Numbered from the stretch's first letter, positions 1,936 through 18,846 are shown. The stretch: DNA of 19,109 nucleotides from Candidatus Methylomirabilota bacterium (GCA_046726415.1 JBKPAK010000220.1:1-19109), one strand, 5' to 3'. Translations and numbers: made by a program. The notes: a model not told the origin generated them from the sequence alone.

Positions 1936-2315
1936 CTAGTGTCCTGTCTCTAACGCTTCTTTACAACGCTTGATCTTGCGCAAGATCGCCGAGGTGGTGG
2001 CCGTCCAAATGAACGGACGCGGATCCTTGTTGTGTTCGCGGACGTAGCTGCGAATGGCGGCGATCAGGGCCGGCACGCTGCGGAACGTGCCTCGACCCAG
2101 CCGCTTGCGGGTGATCTCGGCGAAGAAGCGCTCCACCAGGTTGAGCCAGGAGGCCCCGGTCGGGGTGAAGTGGAAATGAAACCGCGGATGCTCCCTGAGC
2201 CACGTGGTCACCGTCGGATGCTTGTGCGTGCCGTAGTTGTCGAGAATGAGATGAAGGTCCTGACGGCGGGGCGTCCGCTGATCGAGCGTATCCAAGAACG
2301 CGATGAACTCGGCAT
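1936..2315 (-). mobile_element. IS630-family transposase, 3' fragment with right end (5'-truncated)
   Basis: LHLILDNYGTHKH...HPRFHFHFTPTGASWLNLVERFF...RGTFRSV...PRPFIWT is the IS630 DDE C-terminal signature. The stop codon overlaps the terminal ...GGACACTAG with a TA, as in IS630 ends. Confidence 0.92.
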
Positions 2316-2374
2316 ACACAGCGCGGGCGGACAGAGCGGCAGCGCTTCATACGGCCGGACGCGGGAGGGTCGGT

Positions 2375-3725: not shown

Positions 3726-4424
3726 TCATGCCAGGTCGAACACCAGGACCTCGGCAGCCTGCTGACCGACGACAGCGAGGCGGTCCTCGCCGCTTACCGC
3801 CGCGCCATCGCCCTCTCCCAGCGCAGTCCCGTTGACCGAGACTGACCCGCGGGCGACGTGGATCCACGCGTGATGTGACCGGCGCAGCGAGAGCTCCCGT
3901 CGCTCCCCCGGACCGATGAACGCGACCCGGAGGTCCACGTCCTGCTGGACGTCGAGGCTGCCGTCCCGTCCGCCCTTCGAGGCGAGGAGAACGAACGCCC
4001 GGCTGGCCAGCTCCCGATCGAAGGTCTGCTGGCCATACGCCGGCTTCAGACCCCGCGCCTCCGGCACGATCCAGATTTGCAGGAAGTGCACCGGGTCGAC
4101 CTTCGAGTGGTTCTGCTCAGTGTGAGTTACGCCCGTGCCGGCCCGCATCAACTGGATCTCGCCCGGGCGGATGACGCCGCCACCGCCCGAGCTGTCCTGG
4201 TGCTCGAGCGCGCCCTCGAGCACGTAGGACAGGATCTCCATGTCCTGATGGCCGTGGCGCCCGAACCCGGCACCGGCCTTCACGCGGTCGTCGTTGATCA
4301 CCCGCAAGGTCCGAAATCCCATGTGCGCCGGATCGTGGTACTCGCCGAACGAGAAGGTGTGCCGGCTGTCCAGCCAGCCCCAGTCGGTGCGTCCACGCGC
4401 CTCGGCTGGTCGAATCTGCATCAT
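3726..4424 (-). CDS. Pirin family protein (YhhW-like, quercetin 2,3-dioxygenase-type bicupin)
   Basis: GWLDSRHTFSFGEYHDPAHMGFRTLRVINDDRV...GFGRHGHQDMEILSYVLEGALEHQDS...MRAGTGVTHTEQN...FLQIWI. The metal ligands H-x-H and H-x-E are present. Confidence 0.95.
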   Translation of the reverse strand: MMQIRPAEARGRTDWGWLDSRHTFSFGEYHDPAHMGFRTLRVINDDRVKAGAGFGRHGHQDMEILSYVLEGALEHQDSSGGGGVIRPGEIQLMRAGTGVTHTEQNHSKVDPVHFLQIWIVPEARGLKPAYGQQTFDRELASRAFVLLASKGGRDGSLDVQQDVDLRVAFIGPGERRELSLRRSHHAWIHVARGSVSVNGTALGEGDGAAVSGEDRLAVVGQQAAEVLVFDLA

Positions 4425-4439
4425 CGCGTCATCTCCCCC

Positions 4440-6088
4440 TCACGCCTCCTTGAGAAACTCGTGGACGCACTGGACCGCCATCGATCCCTCGCCCACGGCT
4501 GAGGCGACCCGCTTGACAGAGCCCGACCGCACATCGCCGGCCGCGAAGACTCCAGGGCGGCTCGTTTCCAGCAAGAACGGATGCCGACGGCTGGTCCAGT
4601 GGGGGGACCCGGCCAGTGCTGCGCCGGTCCGGATGAATCCCCGGAGTCCCGTTCGATCTCCGGGGGCAGCCAGTCGGTCCGGGGCACGGCGCCGATGAAG
4701 CTGAACACCGCGGGCGTTTCCACGGTGCGCTCCTGCCCGGTCTTCGCGTTGACGATGTCGACCGCGCGGAGGTGATCCGTGCCGCTCATGCGGCGGATCG
4801 TCGTGTTGGGGAGGAGTTCGATGTTGGGCGTTTGCGCGATTCGATGGGCCAGATAGCTGGACATGCTCTCGGACAGATCATCGCCGCGGATCAGGAGGAG
4901 CACCGTGCGGGCATGCTGGGCCAGGAAGACCGCAGCCTGGCCGGCAGAGTTGCCGCCGCCCACCAGCACCACCTGCGTCCCGCGGAACGTCTGACCCTCG
5001 GCAGGCGTGGCCGCGTAGTAGACTCCCTTCCCCTCGAACTGCTCGCACCCCTCCACGGCCAGCCGGCGGTAGTCGGCTCCGGTGGCGATCAGGAGACACT
5101 TCGTGGTGACGATCTCGCCGCTGTCCAGCCGCACGACGGAATAGGCGTTCTCCCAACCGACGTGGACGACCTGAGTGGGGACAGACAGTCGTGCACCGAA
5201 CTTGTTGGCCTGCAGGATGGCACGGTCTGCCAGCTCGCTCCCCGTCACGCCAGTGGGGAAGCCGAGATAGTTTTCGATCCGCATGCTGCTACCCGCCTGC
5301 CCCCCGGGCGCGGTGCGCTCCAGCAACACCGTTCGCAGTCCCTCGGAGGCAGCGTAGACCGCCGCGGCCAGCCCAGCCGGGCCGGCGCCCACGACGACGA
5401 GGTCATAGACCGTCCGATCCAGCGGCTGATGGATGCCGATCGCATCGGCCAGCTGGCGGGTTGAAGGATTTCGCAGGAGCAACAAGTCACCGAGGGCGAC
5501 CACCGGCGTGTCGGCTTCGGTCATGCCAAAGTGTTTGAGGAGCCGGTCAACCTCCGGGTCGGTTTCCACGTCCATCCAGGTGAACAGCACACGGTTCTTG
5601 GCCAGAAAATCGCGGACGCGAAACGTATCGGTGGAGTAGCGGGATCCGATCACCCGCAGGCCAGTGAAGTCCGGTGACTCGCGCAAGAGCTGGCGGCGGG
5701 CGATGAAGGCTTGGAGGATGATGTCACTCAGGGCCGGGCACTGGTTGAGGGCCCCCCGCAGCGTTTCCCCCGATACCTCATCCACCTCGCAATCGCCTCG
5801 GGCCACGGCGCTGATCACAGACGCGCGGCCGGTGAGGTGGGAGACGTCGCCGGTGAACTCGCCCTTCCCATGGAGGGTGACCGTTTTCGGCGTGTCACCG
5901 GAGTGATCGAGAATCTCAATCTCGCCTGACCTGACGACGAAGAACTTGAAGTCGCGATCGCCGATCGAGATGAGGGTCTGGCCGTCGCGATAGGTCCTTG
6001 GGGTGGCGGCGGTGCAACGGCTGAATTCCCTGATCTGGGCGTCGTCGAGCGTCGGGAAGGCGACGGAATGAAGCGTGTGTTCGGCCAT
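4440..6088 (-). CDS. Cyclic-nucleotide-binding domain / thioredoxin-reductase-like FAD-dependent oxidoreductase, with a 1-nt frameshift near 4640
   Basis: N-terminal cNMP-binding domain (FFVVRSGEIEI...GEFTGD), FAD motif GAGPAGLAAA, NAD(P)H motif GGGNSAGQAA. The conserved tail GFIRTG...LETSRPGVFAAGDVRSGSVKRVASAVGEGSMAV...KEA* lies in another frame and ends at TGA 4440-4442. Confidence 0.9.
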
Positions 6089-8138: not shown

Positions 8139-9401
8139 TCATGCTGCCCCTCGGCCCGGGCGCCGGGGAAGAAGCGCCGTCAGGAGCCCCAACAAGAGCA
8201 GGAACGGGGTCAGCCGGTACACCGTCGAGATACTGGTGAGGTCGGCCAGCCGCCCCAGGGCCGCGGCCCCCAGCCCGGCGAGACCGAACGCGAGGCCGTA
8301 GAACATGCCGGCGGTCAGGCCCACGCGCCCGGGCAGCAGCTCTTGGGCGTAGACGAGGATGGCCGAGAAGGATGAGGCCATGATGATGGCGATGAGCACG
8401 GCCAGGACGCCCGTCCAGAAGAGGTTGGCGTAGGGCAGGATCAGCGCGAAGGGCAGGGCCCCCAGGATCGAGAACCACATCACGGGAATGCGTCCCATCC
8501 GATCGCCGACGGCCCCGCCGGCGATGGTGCCGGCCACGATACCAACCAGGAAGGCGAAGAGGTAGAGCTGGGCCGTCTGCACGGGGAGGTGGAACCGGTC
8601 GATCAGATAGAGCGTGTAGTACGAGCTGAGGCTGGCGCTGTAGACGTTCTTCGAGAAGAGCAGAGCCACTAGGACGACCACCGCCGTGGCCACCCGCCGG
8701 CGGGGCAGCGCGCTCTCTCGCGGCGTCGCCCCCGCGGTCCGGGCCGGGGTCGGCGCCGGCCGGCGCGGCCCACGATGACGCGCGTACCAACCCGCCACCT
8801 GCAGCAGCACCACCATGGCCACCAGCGCGGCCAGGGCAAACCAGGCGATGCTCGACTGGCCGCGCGGCACCACCACGAAGGCCGCGAGCAACGGGCCCGA
8901 GGCCGAGCCCACGTTGCCGCCCACCTGGAAGAGCGACTGGGCGAGGCCGTACCGTCCACCGGCCGCCATGCGGGCCACCCGCGAGGCTTCGGGGTGGAAC
9001 ACCGACGAGCCCATGCCGATCAACGCCGCGGCCATCAGGATCGCTGGATAGGAGGACGCTCGCGACATGGCCAGCAGTCCCACCAGCGTGAACCCGATGC
9101 CGACCGTCAGCGAGTAGGGCTGAGGGCGCCGGTCGGTATAGAAGCCCACCGCGGGCTGGAGGATCGAGGCCGTGCACTGGACGGTCAGGGTGATGGCGCC
9201 GATCTGGCCGAAGCTGAGACCATACGACGCTTTCAGGATGGGATAGAGCGCGGGCACCAGCGACTGCATCAGGTCGTTGAGCAGGTGACAGAAGCTCAGC
9301 GACAAGATGATGGAGAAGGTGGTGACCTGGGCGACCGTGCGATGGTGTACGGCGGCGTCCGGCTGAGAGACTCCTGTGGTGGCCACCGCGCGGTCGCTCA
9401 C
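8139..9401 (-). CDS. fsr: MFS transporter, fosmidomycin-resistance (Fsr) family
   Basis: HLLNDLMQSLVPALYPILK, ASILQPAVGFYTDRRP, GSSVFHPEASRVARMAAGGRYGLAQSLFQVGGN, AFSAILVYAQEL.PG-like segment; about 12 hydrophobic segments. Confidence 0.9.
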   Translation of the reverse strand: MSDRAVATTGVSQPDAAVHHRTVAQVTTFSIILSLSFCHLLNDLMQSLVPALYPILKASYGLSFGQIGAITLTVQCTASILQPAVGFYTDRRPQPYSLTVGIGFTLVGLLAMSRASSYPAILMAAALIGMGSSVFHPEASRVARMAAGGRYGLAQSLFQVGGNVGSASGPLLAAFVVVPRGQSSIAWFALAALVAMVVLLQVAGWYARHRGPRRPAPTPARTAGATPRESALPRRRVATAVVVLVALLFSKNVYSASLSSYYTLYLIDRFHLPVQTAQLYLFAFLVGIVAGTIAGGAVGDRMGRIPVMWFSILGALPFALILPYANLFWTGVLAVLIAIIMASSFSAILVYAQELLPGRVGLTAGMFYGLAFGLAGLGAAALGRLADLTSISTVYRLTPFLLLLGLLTALLPRRPGRGAA

Positions 9402-9574
9402 CGAGCCAGGATACCAGTCCTCATCTCGGGTGGCTGGGCGCGCGTGATCCGGGCACCACCCTCGCTCAACGGTCCGGCGATCGCAGGATCTCCGTCTGAG
9501 GCGTCAGCGCCAGGAGCGCTGGGCCTCAAGCCGTCTCTGTTCGAGCGCGTCGGTAGACCCGTATACCAGTCTCG

Positions 9575-9880
9575 CTAGCTAGCCGCGAGCTTGCGCCGAT
9601 ACTGCGCCGGAGGGAGGCCAAACTCGCGCTTGAAAGCGCGGTTGAATGCGGCTTCCGATTCGTAGCCGACATCGAAGGCCACATGGAGAATGGTCTTCGG
9701 GGGTGGTCTGCAGCAGTCTCGCCGCGAGCTGCAGGCGCCAGCGCGCGAGAGAGGTGAGCGGCGGTTCTCCGACGACTGCACGAACCGTTCGGCGATGACG
9801 GAACGCGAGGCGCCCACCTTGGTCGCCAGCTCGGCCACGGTCCAGGGATGGCTGGGCTGCTGATGGAGCATGGTCAGGAC
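9575..9880 (-). pseudogene. AraC-family regulator, C-terminal HTH fragment with two compensating frameshifts
   Basis: LH..PSHPWTVAELATKVGASRSVIAERF / VGEPPLTSLARWRLQLAARLL / TILHVAFDVGYESEAAFNRAFKREFGLPPAQYRR. Shifts fall near 9775 and in the G5 run at 9699-9703. The N-terminal domain is absent. Confidence 0.88.
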
Positions 9881-10001
9881 ACTGCACCGACTCCGTGACA
9901 TCGGCCTCACGCGCGGGAGCATCGAGCGCGCCGTCCGGTTGGGACGGGACGTCGAGAGCGTCAGGTCGGGCCCGGCGAACGCCGGGCGAGCTGCCGATCG
10001 G

Positions 10002-13000
10002 TTATGGCCGCTCGATGGGTTTGGTGAACTCCCTCAGAAGCCAACCCGTGGTGGCTGCTCCCTGAGAGGAATCAGGCGCCCTGACCTCGACCCACTTGCC
10101 CCTGACGCCGAGCTGGACAACAACTTCGTTCGGATGGATCGCGCGAATTGGAGGCGACTGGCCATGGGGCCGGTGCCGCAGCGTCGTCGGTTTGACGGTG
10201 ACAACGGGGACAGGCTCGCCGTGGGCCGCCTGGCCGGCTTGTTCGGCCAGAGGGCTGGGCCCGAGTTGGCGGAGCCTGGCGTTGCGCGTGTCGGCAACCA
10301 CGAACAATGCCCCGCGGGTCACGGTGACGGCTTGGGGCTGGTTGAGCTCGGTCTGGTCGGCGTAGCGGCCGTCCCCGTTGAAGCCACCCTGGGGCGTGCC
10401 GTTGGCGACGAGGCCGCCCAGGTCGACCACGTGGCCGGAGGCGGGCACATAGGCCCGGACGAGGTCATTGGTGGTGTCGGTAAAGACCACGTTGCCATTG
10501 AGGCCAATGGACAGGCCCCTGGGCTGGTTGACCTGGACGGATGTGCCGGGGAGCAGCAGTCCCGTGTTGGGGTCGGTGTTGCCGTTGTAGCCGCTCGCCC
10601 CGGTCCCGACGACGATCGTCGCCTGTCCTGTGGTGAGGTCGATCTGGACGAGGTAGTCGGGGTCATTCGAGGTGGCGTAGAGGTTACCGGCGATGTCGCC
10701 GACCACTGCCCAGAGGAGGCCAAGGCCCCCGGCGCCGCGCTGGCAGCACTCGGTGGTGATGGTGCCGTCGGGGAGCACGCCACGGATGCCCCGGCGACCG
10801 TCGGCGATCCAGAGGTGGCCGCTCGGGTCGACCCACACGCCGTAGGGACCGCTGAGGGCGGCGGCGGTGGCCGGCCCGCCGTCCCCGCAGTCCCCGGGCG
10901 TTGCTCCACGCGGTGGGCGCACGAGACGCTGGCCGGGGAGTAGCGGACGAGGGTGCCGCGGAGGCTGGGGGAGGAGTTCCGGCGCCGGGACACTCCGCCG
11001 GGGATCAACCCGAACGGCGGCGGTAGCGCTGCAGCTCGCGCCGGTACCGGCGACGGTGGTGATGCGGCCCGAGGGATCGATTCGACGGACGCGGTGGAGG
11101 ACCGGGTCGGCCAGGTACAGCGACCCGTCGAGGCCGACGGCTAGGCCTGTAGGTGCTCCGAGCAGAGCTTGGGCGGCCGGGCCGCCATCCCCGCAGGCCT
11201 GGGTGGGGCTGGGACAGTGCTGGCCCGGGTTCCCGGCAATCACCTGCGGGGAGCCGTCGCCCACCACCAGCCGGAGCGTTCCGTCGTCGAGAGCGACGTA
11301 GTAGCCGCGTCCCGTGAGCGTGGTGGCCCAGGTGGGCGGGGTGGCCGGCACCACGGCCAGGGGTGAGCCGATGGAGGTGGCGTCGAAGAGGGTCGAGGTG
11401 GGGGTGGGGCAGGCCCCCAGGCCCGCGGCTGAGCAGGGAGCGGGGATGAGCGGCGCTTCGGCCGGGTCCGGCAGGAGATGGTTATCACAGCCGAAGGGGG
11501 GGATCGGGTCTTTGCCGTCCGGGCAGACGGTCACGTCATTCAGCGACACTCCCGTCAGGTCGGTCGTGGCGAAGGGGACGGGCCCGAATGCCTCCCCGGA
11601 GCCGAGGGCCAGCGGCCAGGCCCATCGGGGCTGCGAGCCCGGGACGTTGGCGCAGGAGCCATTCGAGAGATCCCCGCAGTAGAGCCAGGCACCAAGCAGG
11701 TTGACGCCCGGGAGGGTGGCGGACGAGAACACGGCCCCGAGCAGGTAGGCATCGGAGAAGCTGGCTCCGTCAAGGGTCGATCCGGTGAAGTTGCAGCCGA
11801 TGCACTGAGCTCTGTCGAACTTGGCCCCGGTCAGGTCGGCCCCGGCCAGATCGAAGCCTCCCTGATTGGCGTCGCCGGCGAGCACGGCATCGACGAAGTC
11901 GGCGGCCTGCAGGTTTCTGGCGCTGTCGAAGGCCCGGCCGTCGCCGTAGATGTGGGCGCCATTGAACACGGCGTTGGGGGCCTTCACCGAGTTGAAGTCG
12001 GTGCCCACGGCCAGGGCCCGGTTGAAGGCTGCCCTCGAGAGGTCGGCGCTCTGGAAGCTGGCGCCGCTCACATCCGCCCCGACGAAGACGGCGCCCACCA
12101 GGCTGGTCGTCGAGCCGGCGAAGCTGGCCCCCGGCACATTGCTGTGGGCGGCCAGGCGAGCGTTGAGAAAGGACGCCCCCGTCGCCTCGGCATTGCGGAA
12201 CGTGGCCCCGGAGAGATCGGCCAGCTCGAAGCTCGTCTGCTGGAGCGAGGCACCGTCGAAGTTGGTGCGCGAGAAGTCGGCGGGGAACCCGACGAAGCTG
12301 ACCAGGGCCAAGTTGATGCCGTGCAGGTCCGCACCGGCGAGCCCGGCGCGGTTGCCCGCGTCGGCCACGAAACGGGCGTTGGCGAAGTTGACGGTGACCT
12401 GGTAGGTGCGCGCAAGCAAGGTGAGCAGGTCGAGCGGCGCGGTACTGAACGAGAGCAGCGGGCTGGTCTCGCAGCCAGGGTCCGGCTTGATTGGGGCCAG
12501 GCGGGTGCTGCGGAGGTCCGTGTTCTCGAACTTGGTGCACCGTCCGTCGAAGGGTCCTATCCGGACGCCGGAGAAGCTGGGGGGCATGCTGTGCTGCAGC
12601 CCGACCAATTGGGCGCCGCGGAGGTCGGCGCGGTCGAACACGGTGCGATCGACCACCGTCTGGTCCAGGGTCGCGCCGCTCAAGACAGCGCCGGTCAGGT
12701 CGGCACCGGTCAGGTCGGCGCCGCTCAAGACCGAGCCGATCAGGTCGGCGCCGTTCAGGTCCCAGCCGTTGAAGTTTCCGGTCAGGGTGGCGCCGCCCAG
12801 GCTGGCGCCGCTGAGGTCGCTCTGATACGCGACGTTCGGGTTCAACGGCGTAGGTGTGAAGCTGATTTTCTCCGGCAGCACGCAGGCCCGGCAGCCGTTG
12901 TAGGTGGCCAGAAGCTTCTCTGGGTCTACGATGTCGACCTCCGTCGGGACAAAGGAAGGATCACCCGGGAACAGCACTGGAGCGGGGTCGCCGACCCCGG

Positions 13001-14219
13001 CGTTCTTGGCTCCCCACGCGGACACGCGGCCGGCGGCGTCCTTGAGCAAGACGGCGGCGCCAGGCGCGACGGTAATCGAGTGGGGGTTGGTCATGACTTC
13101 CCGCCCACCTTCGGCAATCCCAGAACACCCGGCAGCTTCGCTCCAGGTGGAACCGGCTGGCAGCACCACCACGTTGGCGCTCGAACTGTTGGGCTCCAGC
13201 GGTCGGGCAAAGACCGCGCCCCCGAATGGAGGAAGGGGAAGCGGTGGGGGATCCTGGCGCAGGCAGATGGGCCCGGTTGGCACGCTGACCGCAACCGAGT
13301 CCGGGCCGCAGCGGGGGATGTCGATGTTGTTGAAGTTGCAGCCGGAGCCGCTGCTGGTATCGGCGGTGATGAAGTTCTGATTGGCGTCGCTGCCGTCGAG
13401 GTTCGCCCGCCCAATCGTTCCGCCGCTCGAGGGGAACCAGCTGTTAGCCCAGTAAATGTGCTCGTAATCGAGCGCCACGCCAAACGGGTTGATCGCGCCG
13501 GTGATGAAGTTCGAGTTGACATTGCTGCCGTCGAGGGTGGCCCGCCCGATCGTGCCGTCCGAAAGGTTGGTCCAGTAGATGTGCTGGTAGTCGACCGCCA
13601 ACCCGGAAACCGCGACGCTTAGTGGGTTCCGGTCGTCGTTCGGGACGGTGATGAAGCTCTGGTTGACGCCGCTGCTGTTCAGGTTCGCCCGCCCAATCGT
13701 GCTGTCGCCGACGTTGGACCAGTAGATGTGCTGGCCGTCGACCGCCAGCCCCGCGGGACCGTTCGCGCCAGCGATGAAGCTCGGGTTCGCGTCGCTGCCG
13801 TCGAGGTTCGCCCGCCCGATCGTGCCCACCGCAGGGATGGCCCTGTAGATGTGCTGGCCGTCGACCGCCAGCACCGCGTAACCGTTCACGCCGGTGATGA
13901 TGAAGCTCGGGTTCGCGTCGCTGCCGTCGAGGTTCGCCCGCCCGATCGTGCCGTCCCCGGTCCAGTAGATGTACTGGCGATCGACCGCCACGTTTATTAC
14001 GGCAAGGACGTTGTTGCCAACCTTGATGAAGCTCTGGTTGACGTTGGCGGGGTTCCCGTCGGTCGTGCCGCGTCCGATCGTTCCGGATTGGGTGTTGGGC
14101 CAGTAGACGAAGGCGGATCCGGATGGCTGGGCGAGCGCGGGCGGCACTGCGACGAGGCTGGCGACCAGCATCGCGGTCAGGAGAGACACCGGGGACGGGT
14201 ACCGGGCGACGGTCGTCAC
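10002..14219 (-). CDS. Large secreted multi-repeat protein (1405 aa): signal peptide, YWTD/LY-like propeller, pentapeptide repeats, NHL repeats, SH3b-like C-terminus
   Basis: Signal ...LVAVPPALA-Q. Six repeats of LAVD.QHIYW....TIGRANLDGS..N.SFI. Many A(D/S)L(S/T)G pentapeptides. NHL units GDGGPA..A.L..P.G. C-terminal TTLRHRP...IRAIHPNEVV...KWVEVR...TGWL. Confidence 0.9.
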   Translation of the reverse strand: MTTVARYPSPVSLLTAMLVASLVAVPPALAQPSGSAFVYWPNTQSGTIGRGTTDGNPANVNQSFIKVGNNVLAVINVAVDRQYIYWTGDGTIGRANLDGSDANPSFIITGVNGYAVLAVDGQHIYRAIPAVGTIGRANLDGSDANPSFIAGANGPAGLAVDGQHIYWSNVGDSTIGRANLNSSGVNQSFITVPNDDRNPLSVAVSGLAVDYQHIYWTNLSDGTIGRATLDGSNVNSNFITGAINPFGVALDYEHIYWANSWFPSSGGTIGRANLDGSDANQNFITADTSSGSGCNFNNIDIPRCGPDSVAVSVPTGPICLRQDPPPLPLPPFGGAVFARPLEPNSSSANVVVLPAGSTWSEAAGCSGIAEGGREVMTNPHSITVAPGAAVLLKDAAGRVSAWGAKNAGVGDPAPVLFPGDPSFVPTEVDIVDPEKLLATYNGCRACVLPEKISFTPTPLNPNVAYQSDLSGASLGGATLTGNFNGWDLNGADLIGSVLSGADLTGADLTGAVLSGATLDQTVVDRTVFDRADLRGAQLVGLQHSMPPSFSGVRIGPFDGRCTKFENTDLRSTRLAPIKPDPGCETSPLLSFSTAPLDLLTLLARTYQVTVNFANARFVADAGNRAGLAGADLHGINLALVSFVGFPADFSRTNFDGASLQQTSFELADLSGATFRNAEATGASFLNARLAAHSNVPGASFAGSTTSLVGAVFVGADVSGASFQSADLSRAAFNRALAVGTDFNSVKAPNAVFNGAHIYGDGRAFDSARNLQAADFVDAVLAGDANQGGFDLAGADLTGAKFDRAQCIGCNFTGSTLDGASFSDAYLLGAVFSSATLPGVNLLGAWLYCGDLSNGSCANVPGSQPRWAWPLALGSGEAFGPVPFATTDLTGVSLNDVTVCPDGKDPIPPFGCDNHLLPDPAEAPLIPAPCSAAGLGACPTPTSTLFDATSIGSPLAVVPATPPTWATTLTGRGYYVALDDGTLRLVVGDGSPQVIAGNPGQHCPSPTQACGDGGPAAQALLGAPTGLAVGLDGSLYLADPVLHRVRRIDPSGRITTVAGTGASCSATAAVRVDPRRSVPAPELLPQPPRHPRPLLPGQRLVRPPRGATPGDCGDGGPATAAALSGPYGVWVDPSGHLWIADGRRGIRGVLPDGTITTECCQRGAGGLGLLWAVVGDIAGNLYATSNDPDYLVQIDLTTGQATIVVGTGASGYNGNTDPNTGLLLPGTSVQVNQPRGLSIGLNGNVVFTDTTNDLVRAYVPASGHVVDLGGLVANGTPQGGFNGDGRYADQTELNQPQAVTVTRGALFVVADTRNARLRQLGPSPLAEQAGQAAHGEPVPVVTVKPTTLRHRPHGQSPPIRAIHPNEVVVQLGVRGKWVEVRAPDSSQGAATTGWLLREFTKPIERP
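13285..14111 (-). repeat. Intragenic tandem repeats (~126 bp, six blades) of the YWTD-like propeller
   Basis: Identical 54-bp copies at 13773-13826 and 13899-13952, and identical 28-bp copies at 13722-13749 and 13845-13872. Confidence 0.9.
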
Positions 14220-14241
14220 GGGGTACCGCCTTGGCGCGCCG

Positions 14242-17200
14242 TCACCGCCGCCGGCGCCGTGCTCGGCTCGGCGTGAGCGGATCGAAGCGGCTCAGGGAGG
14301 GTTCGGCCACGCCCAGGAGGGGGTCGATGTGGGGCTGGCTGGTGCTGCTATCGAGCAGGGCCGTGTAGTTCGCCGCATAGATGCTGCGCCAGTAGTCGAC
14401 GGCGATGTGCGGGATGTTGGTGCCCGGGCTGTTGGTGGCGAGCGGCGCGCCGCTGGGGGTGTAGACGTCGATCCGGTAATCCGCCGGCTGGGTTCCGTCG
14501 CCCTGATATGAAAGCACGTAGATCTGGCCCGAGCCGTCGACTGCGACATCCAGGTAGGTGGCAGGTCTGGGGAGCGTGAGTGTGAAGGCGGCCGGCGACC
14601 CGGTGCCGAAGTAACGGACAGGGTTACCGTCGAGGTCGAATGCGGCCAGCTGCGAGGCGCCAGCTTCCAGCACGATGACGATGCCGGGATTGGTGACAGC
14701 CACCGCGGTCGGGGACGAGAGGAGGCCGATCTCGGTGCCGGGCCCGGCCACGTAGGCCGCCAGCGGAGGCTGAGGGGTGTTGGCCGGCAGCACGTGCCCC
14801 AGCCGGCCGCTATCGGTGTGGATGGCCACGACGCGCCCGGAGGAGTGCAGGGCGGCGGCGCTCACAGGGAGGGGGAAGAAGCCCAGCGAGGTGGTGGGAG
14901 TGGGATCCCAGCTCAGGGCGCCGGTGGTGGGGTCGATGGCCAGGCGCCGGATGTTGTAGCCGGGTGTGGTCTCGTCGGGCTCGAGCAGCACGTGGTTGGC
15001 GATGTCGTCGGCCCCGACGAACGAATCGAACAACAGGAACGGGCGGCGGGTATAGCCCTGTGTCGTCGCGTCACCGAGGGTGATCGTGGCGCCCTTCTCA
15101 GCGATGGGGACGCCCCGCAGCCAATACTTATCGTCCTGCTTCCAGACGATGCCGGCCACACCCAGCCCGGTGGCGATGGCGACGCCGGTCACCTCCTGGA
15201 CGCCGCTGTTGGCGATCGTGCCGGTGTCGGTGACGGAGTCGGACCAGGTGTAGCCGCCGGCCGTGGGACTGTAGGTCGTGGTGTCAGCCCGCCGGAACAC
15301 GGTGGAAGCGGTGATGGGGGCCGGCAACTCGGTGATTGCGAAGGCCACGCTCGAGGGCGGGTTGGCCGGATCGTTGTTGGCCAGCTGGGTTGAGACACCG
15401 GTGCCGACCTGGTTGCCGTTGGCGTCCAAGACCACGATCGACCAGGTGATCGTCCGGCCGCCGAAGGGGGCGGTCAGGTGCAGCACGATAGGGTCGGAGT
15501 CGATGTGGCCGCCGGCATTGAGGGGGCCGGTTCTCGGGGTCAGCGCCACGGCCCCATCGATCTTGGCTTCGATCCGCCACGAGCGGGCCGTCACCGGCCA
15601 CGTCGCCGCGTTGTGGGCAAGATCCCGCGACACCGTCACCGTCGCCGCGTACTGCAACGACACCTCGTTCTCGATCACCCACGGCGACGTCACCGTCTCC
15701 CCGATCGCCTCCGCCAACGTCGCCGCATCACCCACCGCCGCAGCCACGGCCAGGACCTGACCGATCAACGGGATCGCCTCGACGATCTTGGAGCCCGCCT
15801 GTCCCGCAAGGATGGCGGCGGCGATTGGCGTCCAGATCGGGTTGCCGAAGGCTTCGAAGATGGCCTTCGGGATGATCGTCCCGAAGTTGACGAGGATGCT
15901 CCAGATGTTGGCTGTGCTGCCGCCGTTGTTGTTGATGTCCTCGGCGGTGGCTGCACCGGCCGCCACCAACACGGCGACGCTCTCGATGACGGAGAGGATC
16001 CTCGAGCCGATCAGCGCTTTCAACGCCGCATCCAGCGCCTGGCGGTTCTGGATGGCTGTCCGGATACCCGCCCAGGTGCTGGCGACGTCCATGTCGCAGA
16101 AGAGGGCGAAGGCGGTGACGCCGATGGTCAGGACGCCGGTCATCAGCGAGGCGAGGAGGACCTCGTCCTGGGGGGCGATGGCGCCGCTGGGGTAGGCGTC
16201 GGCGGGGAAGTATTGGCGCCAGCCACCGTCGACGGCGTTGCTGCCGAGCCCGCAGTACAGGATCCGGGCGCTGGCCGCCTCGGACGGGAAGTTCAAGGTG
16301 ACGTCGATGGTGTTGGTGTCCCAGATCGGGATGCCGAGGATGGTCCAGATCTGGGGGAGCAGGCCGAGGGAGTGGGCGTGGCGGGTGTTGGGGAACGTCG
16401 CGTTGGGGTCGAGCGACAAGTTGGTGCCGTCGGCTTTGAGGTATTGGACGTACACCGACACCCAGCGGACGTAGTTGTTGTACAGCTTGAGGGGGAGCTG
16501 CCCGCCGTTGAGGCCCCCGTTGACGAAGGTCTTGGTGCCATAGAACAGCCCGGGGTGCTTGACCTGCACGCTGAGCGTCGCTTGCGGTCCGCCCGGCGGG
16601 ACGTAGACGGTGGGGGTGGGAACGACACCTTCGGGCTGATGCCAGGTGGCAGTGTCGCTGGTGTCGTGCAGCTGGTCGAGGGGCTGATCGATGACCTTGC
16701 CGAGGCTGCCGGTGTCACGCACCCCGTGAATGCCCGCCACGAAGGCGTTGCGGGCGGTCTCGGTGAACGTCGTGTCGGTCGTGTTCAACTTGACGGTCGT
16801 CAAGGCGACGGTCTGCGAACCGACGGTGATCTGGCTCGGGTTGCCGGCGGCGTCGACCGCCGGCACCACCGTGGCGTAGTCCTGCCCCGCCTGCTGCATC
16901 TGGCCGATGTAGCTGCCGAGCGCGCTGACCTCAGGCGTCTGGCTCAGCAGCGACTTGGTGGCCGCCACCGCGGTAGGCGCGATGGTCGCCACGTTGGGGT
17001 GCAGCATGGTCAGAGCAATCGCCGTCTGATAGGGGTCCCCGATCGTCTCCAGCTGCACCACGTGCTCCGGGGAGCTGATTTGGGAGGGCAGGAGGCCCAA
17101 CGCCCTCAGGCGCGCAGGCGAGCCCAGCACGCTTCCGAGCGAGCCGGTGAAGCGATGCGCCGCCTGGGCCAGGATCCGCGTGGCCTTGGGCGGGACGCGC

Positions 17201-17637
17201 CACAGTTGCGACACCAAGACTTCGTTCTGCCCCCTGCGCCCGTACACCGAGACCACCATGCCCCGGTCCACCGAGAAGGGGACAGCCGAGACGTAGTGGG
17301 TGAGAGCGGACAGGTTCATGACGCCCCACAGGCCGCCTTCGGCCTTGAGCGCTGCTCGTGACACCTCGGTGTGTGGGACCAGTGGGAACCTGGCCCCGTT
17401 GGCGACCAGCACCAGATCCGAGACGCCCGTGGCTGTTGCGAGGGCGAAGTGGAGGGCGGAGGAGCTGCGCACGCGCGTCGGTGCGGCAACGGCCGGACTC
17501 GACTGCAGCTGCATAGCCATGGCCGCGGCTGAGCCCAGGCCGGCCTTGAGCATCCAGCGGCGGCTCACCGGCGTGGCCCCGAGCTCTCTCAGCAGTGATC
17601 GGCTCTCGCTGTCCAGGTGCGTGTGCTCGTCGCTCAT
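14242..17637 (-). CDS. Tat-signal hypothetical protein (1131 aa) with central hydrophobic helices and C-terminal NHL-like beta-propeller
   Basis: SD AGGAG before the ATG. Twin-arginine motif SRRWMLK followed by an h-region and PAVA-A. C-terminal blades LSSPTAVAVT..G.VIVLE and YLDVAVDGSGQIYVLSY, HIAVDYWRSIYAANY. The stop lies 22 nt from the next start. Confidence 0.88.
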   Translation of the reverse strand: MSDEHTHLDSESRSLLRELGATPVSRRWMLKAGLGSAAAMAMQLQSSPAVAAPTRVRSSSALHFALATATGVSDLVLVANGARFPLVPHTEVSRAALKAEGGLWGVMNLSALTHYVSAVPFSVDRGMVVSVYGRRGQNEVLVSQLWRVPPKATRILAQAAHRFTGSLGSVLGSPARLRALGLLPSQISSPEHVVQLETIGDPYQTAIALTMLHPNVATIAPTAVAATKSLLSQTPEVSALGSYIGQMQQAGQDYATVVPAVDAAGNPSQITVGSQTVALTTVKLNTTDTTFTETARNAFVAGIHGVRDTGSLGKVIDQPLDQLHDTSDTATWHQPEGVVPTPTVYVPPGGPQATLSVQVKHPGLFYGTKTFVNGGLNGGQLPLKLYNNYVRWVSVYVQYLKADGTNLSLDPNATFPNTRHAHSLGLLPQIWTILGIPIWDTNTIDVTLNFPSEAASARILYCGLGSNAVDGGWRQYFPADAYPSGAIAPQDEVLLASLMTGVLTIGVTAFALFCDMDVASTWAGIRTAIQNRQALDAALKALIGSRILSVIESVAVLVAAGAATAEDINNNGGSTANIWSILVNFGTIIPKAIFEAFGNPIWTPIAAAILAGQAGSKIVEAIPLIGQVLAVAAAVGDAATLAEAIGETVTSPWVIENEVSLQYAATVTVSRDLAHNAATWPVTARSWRIEAKIDGAVALTPRTGPLNAGGHIDSDPIVLHLTAPFGGRTITWSIVVLDANGNQVGTGVSTQLANNDPANPPSSVAFAITELPAPITASTVFRRADTTTYSPTAGGYTWSDSVTDTGTIANSGVQEVTGVAIATGLGVAGIVWKQDDKYWLRGVPIAEKGATITLGDATTQGYTRRPFLLFDSFVGADDIANHVLLEPDETTPGYNIRRLAIDPTTGALSWDPTPTTSLGFFPLPVSAAALHSSGRVVAIHTDSGRLGHVLPANTPQPPLAAYVAGPGTEIGLLSSPTAVAVTNPGIVIVLEAGASQLAAFDLDGNPVRYFGTGSPAAFTLTLPRPATYLDVAVDGSGQIYVLSYQGDGTQPADYRIDVYTPSGAPLATNSPGTNIPHIAVDYWRSIYAANYTALLDSSTSQPHIDPLLGVAEPSLSRFDPLTPSRARRRRR

Positions 17638-17821
17638 CAGTCTTTCTCCTGGCGAAGCCTCATGCAGGGCCGGTGATGAGAGAAGTCGGCTGGTGCCTTG
17701 TTATCTCGTAGGGTCGACGACCGGCGCTTGCTCCGCTCTCCATGCCCGAAGGTGAGGTTAGATATGTCTTCTGGATCTTCTGTGCGTTCCCCTTCGGGAG
17801 CGCCGGAGACCGGTCGAGATG

Positions 17822-17908
17822 AGCGGGTGCCGTGCCACCCCCGCGATTCTGCGTAACTCCTCGATTCGCCGCTCGTTGCATGGTCCCGGCTGTGCAGAAG
17901 GTTGCACA
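17822..17908 (-). promoter_or_regulatory. Putative sigma54 promoter with IHF site and upstream activator palindrome
   Basis: TGGCACG-GCAC-CCGCT (17837-17822, GG-N10-GC). AATCGA-GGAG-TTA (17866-17854, one mismatch to WATCAANNNNTTR). TGTGCA-N6-TGCACA (17891-17908). Confidence 0.62.
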
Positions 17909-18210
17909 CGGTGAGCAAGCCGCCTGCGACCCGGGCGGGCGTTCCCGGAACGTCGCAGACTGTGTTACCGATGCGTTCGCTGGAGTGGGGTGACGGTGGC
18001 GCGGGCCGGCGCCCTTGGCGTACTGTCGACCACTAGAATCGCTGGCGCTGCGCTTTTTCGGCGGCTTCGATTTCAGCACTGGCGCCGGGCGCCCGGGGCC
18101 AGAAGGCCCAGGCGCCGCTGGCCTACCTCGCCTGCCACACCGGCCAATTGCATCCCGGGACAATAGCAGGCCCGCACCAATCTCCGCAAGGCGGTTTGGG
18201 TCCTTCGAGG

Positions 18211-18260
18211 GACATGCGGCTCTGGAGCAGGCCGAGGCGGAGATGAAGGCGCTCGGCTGA
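18211..18260 (+). pseudogene. Tiny remnant resembling the C-terminus of adenylate-cyclase/AAA-ATPase/TPR proteins
   Basis: Reads DMRLW / LEQAEAEMKALG* across a small deletion. From memory this resembles the (E/D)M.FWLEQAEAE(L/M)..LG ending common in Rokubacteria-type proteins. Very short. Confidence 0.4.
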
Positions 18261-18444
18261 TCTCTGCCCGCGCTGCCAGGTTGAGAACCGCGGTTCTCAG
18301 ACCACTTCGAGCTCGGTCAGGGCGAAACGAGGCGAGCGCGGGACCCGCGCACGGAGCCTGTGGCTTCTAGGTGAGATCACCACCCGAGCCGGCCCGGGAA
18401 CCACGGAGGGACCCGAGAGCCGCTATCGCGAGGCGCTTGCGATC

Positions 18445-18846
18445 TCAGCGAGACCTTGTCGGATTGGCGTCTCCGAGCGCGTGCGCGAAGTACGCGTGCC
18501 AGCGGGCGAGATCATTCCGCGTGCGCTGATCCTGCGCACCCTGAACTTGAATCGCCATCCACGCCGCGCGCAAGGTGGCCTGGAGGCGACGAACCTCGTC
18601 GGCCGACAGCCGCACCGGCCGCCCGGTGAGGGCGGTCAGCTGCCGCTTGAGAATGTCCAGCTGCTTCGGCTGGAGCGGCGCCGCGGTCGCCCGCGGGGGC
18701 AGCGATGCGAGCGTCGTCTGCAGGCTCTTCTGCGCCACCGCTCCTCGTTCGAGGTTCTTGCGCATGAAGGTCGAGAGCAACGACGGGTCGTTCATGTTGT
18801 AGAGCGGCCGAGGCTGCGGTGGGAGATGGCCGGGAAAACGAGCCAT
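18445..18846 (-). CDS. Hypothetical protein, 133 aa
   Basis: Strong SD GGAGGAGG upstream of ATG 18846 (MARFPGHLPPQ...). The upstream extension in the ORF track overlaps the cupin gene and is unlikely. Confidence 0.65.
   Translation of the reverse strand: MARFPGHLPPQPRPLYNMNDPSLLSTFMRKNLERGAVAQKSLQTTLASLPPRATAAPLQPKQLDILKRQLTALTGRPVRLSADEVRRLQATLRAAWMAIQVQGAQDQRTRNDLARWHAYFAHALGDANPTRSR

Follow-up and report, generated by a model that had tools for sequence, protein, structure and literature searches.

A nameless two-gene module pairing a predicted Tat substrate with a pentapeptide-repeat protein in Candidatus Methylomirabilota and distant bacteria

Pentapeptide-repeat proteins of the Qnr, MfpA and McbG type are cytoplasmic DNA mimics that protect gyrase; outside gyrase protection, we know of no established role for most proteins with this repeat. 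Teneurins and the bacterial teneurin-like or YD-shell toxins are large surface proteins. Binary membrane-attacking toxins comprise alpha-helical pore formers with concealed hydrophobic helices, or use one binder for several active components. Lipoproteins exported by the twin-arginine translocation (Tat) route and Tat-inserted membrane proteins carry an N-terminal twin-arginine motif. The gene pair described here was compared with all of these. It consists of gene A (P0001), which belongs to a family without a name, and gene B (P0002), which encodes a pentapeptide-repeat and propeller protein, and it was found in a 19,109-nt stretch of DNA from a Candidatus Methylomirabilota bacterium (GCA_046726415.1, JBKPAK010000220.1:1-19109). 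This stretch, referred to as the window, is the entire contig C220 of a genome of 7.6 Mb (98% complete, 67% GC), referred to as the own genome. Related loci, genomes and contigs are labelled with L, G and C, respectively.

The Qnr, MfpA and McbG proteins share with B the repeat fold and generic NCBIfam and Pfam repeat matches. B differs from Qnr and MfpA in its length of 1405 amino acids (aa), its signal peptide, its 15 invariant Cys and its fused propellers. An assignment of B to Qnr, MfpA or PipB was rejected, with NCBIfam scores of 33-55 bits against cut-offs of 240-500 (best Qnr-type score 55.2 bits vs 240; MfpA 42.6 vs 360), and a role as DNA mimic makes no sense for B in the periplasm. 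The likeness to teneurins consists of a match of B to TEN_NHL and of alignments of the propeller and sandwich of A to teneurin chains, which gave TM-scores of 0.10-0.17 and rest on the propeller. Teneurin-like or YD-shell (RHS) toxins were rejected for both proteins, as no RHS_repeat, YD, Tox-GHH or C-terminal toxin domain was found with Pfam at E ≤ 0.01.

By analogy, the pair may be likened to binary toxins, being a neighbouring two-protein set with up to three A per B, hydrophobic helices in an otherwise soluble protein, variable heads and a mobile distribution. No sequence or fold match to any such toxin was obtained, with the helical region of A searched only within the whole model, and the analogy does not imply membership. 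The twin-arginine motif of A is shared with Tat lipoproteins, and distant A homologues add a lipobox to it. In contrast to Tat-inserted proteins, A is far larger and its hydrophobic helices are internal instead of C-terminal; the copy in the window has no lipobox.

In Caulobacter crescentus, a secreted pentapeptide protein of the YjbI type with Cys pairs flanking its helix is reported to act on outer-membrane composition (PMC12864828), thus at the envelope and not on DNA gyrase. B, compared by description only, resembles this protein as a predicted exported pentapeptide beta-helix with flanking Cys pairs. The abstract mentions no A-like partner gene, propellers or Tat-exported companion and names neither the size nor the propellers of B (PMC12864828). 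The pairing of A with a pentapeptide protein matched no named system in Pfam, NCBIfam or PADLOC, and no description of it was found in the open-access literature searched. Within those libraries, the module lies outside the known kinds of system; of its components, the pentapeptide helix and the propellers of the NHL and YWTD type are known.

Conserved pairing of A with a pentapeptide gene

The region is one intact cassette of a horizontally scattered, previously nameless two-gene module. An earlier note, made from the sequence of the window alone, had described two very large co-oriented open reading frames (ORFs) separated by 22 nt. Both proved to be intact and to have a strong coding signature (GC content at third codon positions 0.90 for A and 0.86 for B). 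AGGAGA precedes the ATG start of A, and in five related loci the stop codon of A and the start codon of B overlap by 4 nt. A and B here form a real operon.

A word-indexed search (8000 scored candidates) gave 176 homologues of A at E ≤ 0.001; among the 120 listed, nearly all are full-length with 50-95% identity, and none has a precomputed Pfam domain. An exhaustive search of 50%-identity representatives gave 914 matches at E ≤ 0.001 and 242 at E ≤ 1e-30, and full-length relatives extend down to ~26% identity. In 16 distant homologues no Pfam family was detected, apart from weak TAT_signal matches and one spurious match. Carriers are Methylotetracoccus oryzae with homologue P0019, a metagenome-assembled genome (MAG) of an uncultured Methylococcaceae, Solirubrobacterales MAGs and the own genome. 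The pair occurs in at least three phyla, including Pseudomonadota and Actinomycetota.

Among the close relatives, 11 of 13 intact arrays have B after their last A, i.e., those in the window, on C326 of the own genome, in L001 (Methylococcaceae) and in L002, L004, L005, L006, L021, L022, L023 and G433 (all Solirubrobacterales). L003 ends at a contig edge, and L029 and L030 are frameshifted remnants of both genes. The own genome contains three cassettes: the one in the window, one on C326 with the order A, split A, B, and one split between C16 and C90, for which a degraded A is found at the start of C16 and B begins on C16 and continues on C90. The two B paralogues are 85% and 77% identical to B of the window. 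The split A copy (G000:C326:12633-16032) lies in two frames and is broken near residue 540, and the degraded copy (G000:C16:284-1998) lacks residues ~56-600 and is distributed over three frames; each is either a pseudogene or the result of an assembly indel.

For more divergent lineages, ten distant A homologues were aligned and metagenome contigs were scanned, which gave 79 loci with an A identity of 25-48%. Six near-duplicates (L038, L059, L074, L088, L092, L105) were removed, and a hidden Markov model of the pentapeptide part of B was run on the six-frame ORFs of the 73 non-redundant loci. A pentapeptide ORF was located downstream of A on the same strand in 29 of the 39 loci with a downstream flank of at least 3 kb, and upstream on the same strand in 7 of the 25 loci with an upstream flank of at least 3 kb. 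When at least 3 kb were present on both sides (18 loci), it was found downstream only in 13 and upstream only in 4 loci and never on both sides; thus, 17 of these 18 loci have an adjacent pentapeptide gene, L040 being the exception. The opposite strand gave no pentapeptide ORF in any of the three sets, and all pentapeptide-positive frames are on the strand of A (51/51). PF00805 was found independently by Pfam in 27 of 45 flanking ORFs tested. The distant pentapeptide partners have no NHL domain and some have FG-GAP repeats instead. The ancient core therefore consists of A and a pentapeptide beta-helix. The pairing of A with a pentapeptide gene is deep, directional and same-strand over very divergent lineages, and the neighbourhood check proposed in the earlier note gave recurrent linkage in the close set, which covers three phyla, and in the distant set.

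In genome surveys, three of the 251 genomes available for the own phylum carry A (degraded in two). A was also present in 3 of 301 sampled Solirubrobacterales genomes, of which G266 has a match of propeller length only. The B-specific domain (residues 319-470) was present in 1 of the 251 and 2 of the 301 genomes, respectively, and every genome with this domain also carries an intact A. The module is found in ~1% of the genomes sampled in these two lineages. It is multi-copy: G253 contains 8 full-length A genes, and G252 contains 5, in convergent arrays. Up to three A genes are present per B gene in A-A-A-B arrays. Transposase, integrase or group II intron genes adjoin many loci, and the neighbour genes vary between loci.

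Targeting classes were assigned to 26 pairs by inspecting the N-termini by eye, without a predictor. A Tat signal on A is combined with a Sec-type signal on the partner in 10 pairs (window, C326, L001, L004, L020/L002, L021, L022, L060, L079, L101). Both partners have a lipobox in 7 pairs, in which A has a Tat signal in six and a Sec signal in one (L031, L032, L076, L078, L102, L103; L057), and neither partner has a signal in another 7 (L058, L064, L065, L067, L068, L070, L071). For L063 and L106, a Tat-lipobox A has a Sec-type partner encoded ~2 kb off; here, both proteins are exported and the anchor types differ. No pair has one partner exported and the other not. In most loci with signal-less pairs, the first Met is preceded by an in-frame stop codon at a distance of 4 to ~40 codons; L058 and L064 have a frame that is open further upstream, yet no signal-like stretch is present. 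Signal-less A proteins start with MHET..., and their partners start with a shared N-terminal domain ('...INTW...YNQNYTV(Y/F)GL'-like) for which no family is known. The signal classes cluster by descent and hence represent few independent events. Judged from the N-termini, the targeting of A and its partner appears to co-vary, as would be expected for proteins that must meet.

The own genome contains two Omp85 genes. The organism is therefore diderm, and Tat and Sec deliver to the periplasm. The earlier note had placed the pair outside the cell; this placement has to be qualified in view of the diderm host and of the subclade in which both partners are signal-less.

Architecture of the two proteins

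The features of the cassette are listed in Table 1. Protein A was modelled with AlphaFold2 on 46 sequences (mean predicted local distance difference test, pLDDT, 77), and a second model was made for residues 50-480 (pLDDT 87).

Table 1. Features of the A-B cassette; positions are counted from the first nucleotide of the window.
Feature	Residues	Position	Strand	Remarks
Gene A (P0001)		14242..17637	-	1131 aa, ATG start; intact ORF; family without name
Twin-arginine signal peptide	A 1-51	17485..17637	-	VSRRWMLKAGLGSAAA...AVA-AP; cleavage site by eye
Alpha/beta N-domain	A 57-310	16708..17469	-	pLDDT mostly >90 in both models
Ig-like beta-sandwich	A 361-475	16213..16557	-	VIA-wide Z 5-6, generic sandwiches
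Hydrophobic helical region	A 485-650	15688..16185	-	nine predicted helices, pLDDT 56-75
Second beta-sandwich before propeller	A 651-805	15223..15687	-	AlphaFold2 secondary structure
Six-bladed NHL-type beta-propeller	A 806-1122	14272..15222	-	fold and profile matches
Spacer from A stop to B start		14220..14241	.	22 nt, read from sequence
Gene B (P0002)		10002..14219	-	1405 aa, GTG start; intact ORF; pentapeptide-repeat and propeller protein
Sec-type signal peptide	B 1-32	14124..14219	-	…LLTAMLVASLVAVPPALA-QP; read by eye
YWTD-type propeller head (variable module)	B 33-300	13320..14123	-	Pfam
Small Cys-containing B-specific domain	B 319-455	12855..13265	-	conserved in 10/10 B homologues
Pentapeptide-repeat quadrilateral beta-helix	B 456-900	11520..12854	-	~450 residues
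Cys-rich linker	B 901-989	11253..11519	-	highly conserved
NHL propeller	B 990-1325	10245..11252	-	PF25021 E 2.2e-21; PF01436 E 4e-5
Variable tail, weakly SH3b-like	B 1326-1405	10005..10244	-	SH3_3 sub-threshold
Segment upstream of A, no feature assigned		17638..18444	-	~800 nt

The twin-arginine signal that the earlier note had read on A was confirmed. After RR at residues 26-27, the N-terminus continues with a hydrophobic stretch and AVA-AP; both Arg (R26, R27) are invariant across 46 aligned A homologues, and RR motifs are also present in distant homologues. The Pfam model TAT_signal (PF10518) gave 16.3 bits, under its cut-off of 22.7, and TatC is encoded on contig C256 of the own genome (248 bits, above cut-off). 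By its motif and by the Tat machinery of the genome, A is a predicted Tat substrate. Apart from the sub-threshold TAT_signal match, A has no family in Pfam, NCBIfam or PADLOC.

His89, His114 and His213 of the N-domain are invariant in the close A family and still conserved to at least 90% when distant homologues (21-30% identity) are added. For the N-terminal model (residues 50-480), Foldseek found nothing in the PDB at E ≤ 0.001, and VIA-wide gave generic sandwiches alone, with a best Z of 6.1 and all matches on the Ig-like part. The N-domain thus has a confidently predicted model for which no structural relative was found in PDB Foldseek or VIA-wide. The Ig-like matches span residues 312-424 of the 50-480 model, and this sandwich is among the best-conserved parts of A.

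Kyte-Doolittle peaks of ~2.0 (above 1.9) are found in the helical region at residues 492-516, 539-566 and 616-645, and the architecture of this region is kept across all three targeting classes of A. It is also the most variable part: the conservation minimum of A lies within it, especially at residues 511-630, and it is the most diverged A domain between paralogues. On contig C18 of G253 (L023:10047-17894), a Mutator-family transposase ORF lies between two tandem A genes. Their nucleotide sequences are 100% identical except for two blocks at about aa 391-470 and 541-690, which have 42-76% nucleotide identity. If it is no assembly artefact, this mosaic represents a cassette-like exchange centred on the helical region.

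The propeller is the sole part of A that matches solved structures. It has no Pfam match from the single sequence. VIA-wide gave a Z of 19.0 to 7nyq_B (Mei-P26; root-mean-square deviation 3.4, 256 aligned residues), followed by 1q7f_A (Z 18.9) and 8suc_A (Z 18.4); Foldseek gave E 7e-8 to 6d69 (Thin), and NHL chains were also found in a PDB profile search (E 3e-6). Alignments to filamin-NHL (6fpt) and to teneurin chains, obtained with VIA and Foldseek, in some cases reach into the second sandwich. When the whole model of A was searched against PDB, VIA-wide and BFVD, the top rows were all propellers and no pore-former fold was among them. Because propellers fill these searches, no claim is made that the helical region or the second sandwich has a novel fold. 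In the ESM Atlas, whole A matched NHL-type clusters only, with scores ≤ 0.78, and residues 57-660 gave no usable match.

B has a single hydrophobic segment (residues 7-32, Kyte-Doolittle value 2.07), which is N-terminal and ends with ALA-QP; this agrees with the Sec signal described before. The head matches PF00058 (Ldl_recept_b, E 1.1e-8) and, under the cut-off, PF24684 (Vgb_lyase, E 9.7e-12) at residues 42-258. For the small Cys domain, no Pfam match was found even at E ≤ 5. The pentapeptide solenoid, also proposed earlier, was detected in six stretches by PF00805 (E 5.9e-33, 112.5 bits, cut-off 20.2), by PF13599 (E 7.3e-17, 61.6 bits, cut-off 38) and by PF13576 (E 3.3e-15, 56.5 bits, cut-off 27). 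The NHL propeller reaches 76.7 bits with PF25021 (TEN_NHL; cut-off 27.1) and is split by a Pro/Arg-rich insert of 45 residues (residues 1065-1110, nt 10890-11027), which is restricted to the three B paralogues of the own genome; the other 7 of 10 aligned sequences are gapped here (40-41). With the YWTD and NHL propellers of B, both found by Pfam, and the NHL-like propeller of A, the number of three beta-propellers claimed for the pair was correct.

In 10 B homologues, 15 Cys are invariant, which fits an oxidising compartment. Among them are pairs on either side of the helix (C443/C446, C806/C809, C848/C856) and C899, C911, C929 and C937 around the linker. The tail had been taken for a cell-wall-binding element. 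It matches PF08239 (SH3_3) at E 0.0012, with 19.4 bits under the cut-off of 27; sub-fragment Pfam scans at E ≤ 5 gave this weak match alone, and the tail is poorly conserved or absent in relatives. Among the B paralogues of the own genome, the head and the small domain are 68-73% identical (the YWTD head alone 68-69%), and the core of helix and NHL propeller is 82-96% identical. The head is absent from B of L001, L004, L020 and L022, and in L021 an FG-GAP-repeat head precedes the conserved core. Neither A nor B matched an enzyme family in Pfam, NCBIfam or PADLOC, and neither has a full-length match to a characterised enzyme family; the statement of the earlier note that no catalytic motif is present thus stands so far. 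Taken together, its description of a two-gene exported system held for the ORFs, signals, propellers and repeats, weakly for the tail, and was not confirmed for the promoter described below.

Proposed function and rival explanations

We tentatively favour, with somewhat less than even confidence, a co-localised complex in which B is a binding stalk and A a membrane-engaging effector. We are far more certain of a functional pair than of membrane engagement and antagonism. Both proteins would be located in the periplasm or envelope of the diderm host and act as a complex. B would form a rigid rod, the exchangeable propeller head and small N-terminal domain of which select what is bound, and its conserved NHL end may be a docking site for A. 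A would be the working partner. Since Tat would carry A across the membrane already folded, its hydrophobic helices would escape the stop-transfer arrest expected in Sec, and the fast-evolving helical region may engage a lipid membrane or a variable target. Rarity, multiple copies, A-A-A-B arrays and the frequent proximity of transposases or integrases argue for an accessory interaction or antagonism device and not for envelope housekeeping. The two-partner interpretation of the earlier note, in which B was the surface anchor or receptor binder and A inserted into a membrane in a toxin, adhesion or predation role, is supported in part, i.e., for the conserved pairing, by linkage, by co-occurrence and by the absence of any enzyme-family match; a binder or anchor role of B also fits the fact that its head varies (YWTD, FG-GAP or none) and that head and small domain diverge faster among paralogues.

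Several observations weigh against this complex with a membrane-engaging A. Two intact A arrays have no B: in L024 an oxidoreductase comes next, and in L020 two HYDIN-Ig/DUF1573 proteins come after the A-A pair on the plus strand. Loci of common descent do not count as independent. The subclade without a signal on either partner means that export is not intrinsic to the module. In the Pfam-scanned flanks, neither an immunity-gene candidate nor a third gene shared by every locus was noticed, although AAA-TPR regulators recur in six loci. No sequence or fold match of A to a pore-former was found, with the helical region searched only within the whole model. Its last helix has conserved Glu and Asp residues, unlike a classic transmembrane segment, and at the model confidence given in Table 1 the region may simply be a soluble bundle. 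The mosaic of the tandem copies was seen in a single MAG and is possibly an assembly artefact. A metal enzyme would likewise be consistent with the three conserved His of the N-domain and with the use of Tat. A complex prediction of A 651-1131 with B 319-470 plus 965-1325 (score 0.00, mark 0.32) counts neither way.

An envelope-resident complex serving the surface of its own cell is rather unlikely. Such a complex would monitor or adjust the composition of the envelope or capture a substrate, with B in or on the envelope and A held beside it through the helical region or, in relatives, a lipid anchor. The secreted YjbI-type protein of Caulobacter, with its helix-flanking Cys pairs, is reported to regulate outer-membrane composition (PMC12864828), and invariant Cys likewise flank the helix of B; the 7 pairs of lipoproteins, the weakly SH3b-like tail and the AAA-TPR regulators of the LAL/MalT type beside L002, L020, L021, L024, L068 and L070 would also suit an envelope function. 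Against it, the module is found in only ~1% of the genomes sampled in two lineages, forms multi-copy tandem arrays, is flanked by transposases or integrases and lacks any signal peptide in seven pairs. We regard an exported metal or cofactor enzyme on a scaffold as unlikely. In this case, A would have its site in the N-domain or propeller and require Tat because it folds or is loaded in the cytoplasm, and B would position A on a polymer or surface substrate. This would explain why His89, His114 and His213 are kept even at 21-30% identity and why the Tat signal is conserved in distant clades, and propeller enzymes are among the structural neighbours of A (phytase 1poo, Z 17.6; CylK 7ron, Z 17.0; PAL 3fw0, Z 15.6). 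These propeller matches are at fold level only, though, and no enzyme family of Pfam, NCBIfam or PDB matches any part; moreover, the signal-less subclade speaks against a Tat-dependent cofactor as the defining trait, and the fastest-evolving part is the helical region and not a recognisable substrate-binding module.

The patchy, multi-copy occurrence near mobile elements and the signal-less subclade could also be expected of anti-phage defence or another cytoplasmic conflict system, but export signals are present on both proteins in the window and in most clades, PADLOC gave no family (0 for A, 0 for B), and nuclease, ATPase or NAD-related domains are absent, which makes such a system highly improbable. 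That A and B are mere neighbours, i.e., two stand-alone surface proteins without a functional tie, would account for the two intact A arrays without B. It is close to refuted: of the 18 distant loci with both flanks, 17 have a pentapeptide gene on the strand of A, and none of the 51 pentapeptide frames is on the opposite one; in addition, the B-specific domain co-occurs with A, the targeting classes match, and stop and start codons overlap.

The favoured complex of stalk and effector may be extended to a new two-component cell-targeting weapon, which we consider rather unlikely in this specific form. The beta-helix stalk with swappable heads would dock to a target surface and present alternative A subunits, the helical cassette of which would insert into the target membrane; release would follow three routes (Tat/Sec, lipoprotein anchor, signal-less). 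If this were true, large exported pentapeptide-repeat proteins would for the first time have a general role, and soil communities would harbour a new type of bacterial weapon if the pair proved antagonistic. If the pair were instead an envelope module, it would extend the recent YjbI finding (PMC12864828). Whatever the function, a single family of ~1,100-residue proteins is linked to a broad group of large pentapeptide-repeat proteins and provides a constant partner for study. Owing to the matched targeting signals on the pair, the role of the pentapeptide rods becomes directly testable, and the N-domain of A, with its confident model and no solved match, is a structural target.

Genes around the cassettes and minor observations

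The earlier note had read a dedicated-looking promoter ahead of the pair. This was not confirmed: a sigma-70 consensus scan of 9400-18600 gave 0 sites (0.5 expected from shuffles). Rfam found no family anywhere in the window, 17638-18444 included, and a TTG-start ORF of 167 aa at 17660-18163 has no family match. Among datasets sharing sampled words of the region, there was no RNA set; the DNA sets are soil metagenomes, which share ≤ 0.45 of the words.

Large AAA-TPR regulators recur at six loci in two clades (L002:4915-7764, L020:2-2248, L021:12764-14482, L024:9205-12003, L068:2673-5177, L070:10476-13256); several have a LuxR/GerE helix-turn-helix (HTH) domain (LAL/MalT type). Solirubrobacterales cassettes are accompanied by HYDIN/VesB-like Ig and DUF1573 proteins (L020:2279-4024, L020:11326-12966, L020:12988-14607, L004:14500-16416). 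One of these proteins also has an ALK/LTK glycine-rich domain, and in one array such proteins replace B. In L022, an RCC1-repeat propeller gene (8432-9901, plus strand) directly follows the head-less B and may be a separately encoded head. An RHS-repeat and Tlde1 protein is encoded at L064:12692-14014 (minus strand), ~2 kb past the pentapeptide gene of a signal-less cassette and next to an rve integrase.

The protein P0272 is a chimera of 2282 aa. Its residues 8-921 match A 18-912 (61% identity) and are followed by ALK_LTK_GRD and TIG domains; after these, a match to B 573-1324 is found. It is either a natural fusion or an artefact of gene calling or assembly. As P0272 comes from one European Nucleotide Archive contig (74,632 bp), which also encodes P0009 and P0011, it is too thin for a Rosetta-stone fusion.

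In the own genome, IS110 and other DDE-type transposase genes are located directly upstream of the cassette on C326. In the window, B is followed after 79 nt by a same-strand gene for an AraC-family protein of 115 aa consisting of the HTH only (9575-9922, minus strand); no counterpart adjoins either paralogous cassette of the own genome. Also 3' of B on the same strand is a major facilitator superfamily (MFS) transporter gene (8139-9401). Beyond it, a TauD gene, a gene fusion, a pirin gene and a transposase fragment were found. Within 3726-6088 (minus strand), the fusion (555 aa) joins a cyclic-nucleotide-binding domain to a thioredoxin-reductase-like flavoprotein, and its stop codon overlaps the start of the pirin/quercetinase-like gene by 4 nt. 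The transposase fragment (1936-2319, minus strand, 127 aa) belongs to DDE_3.

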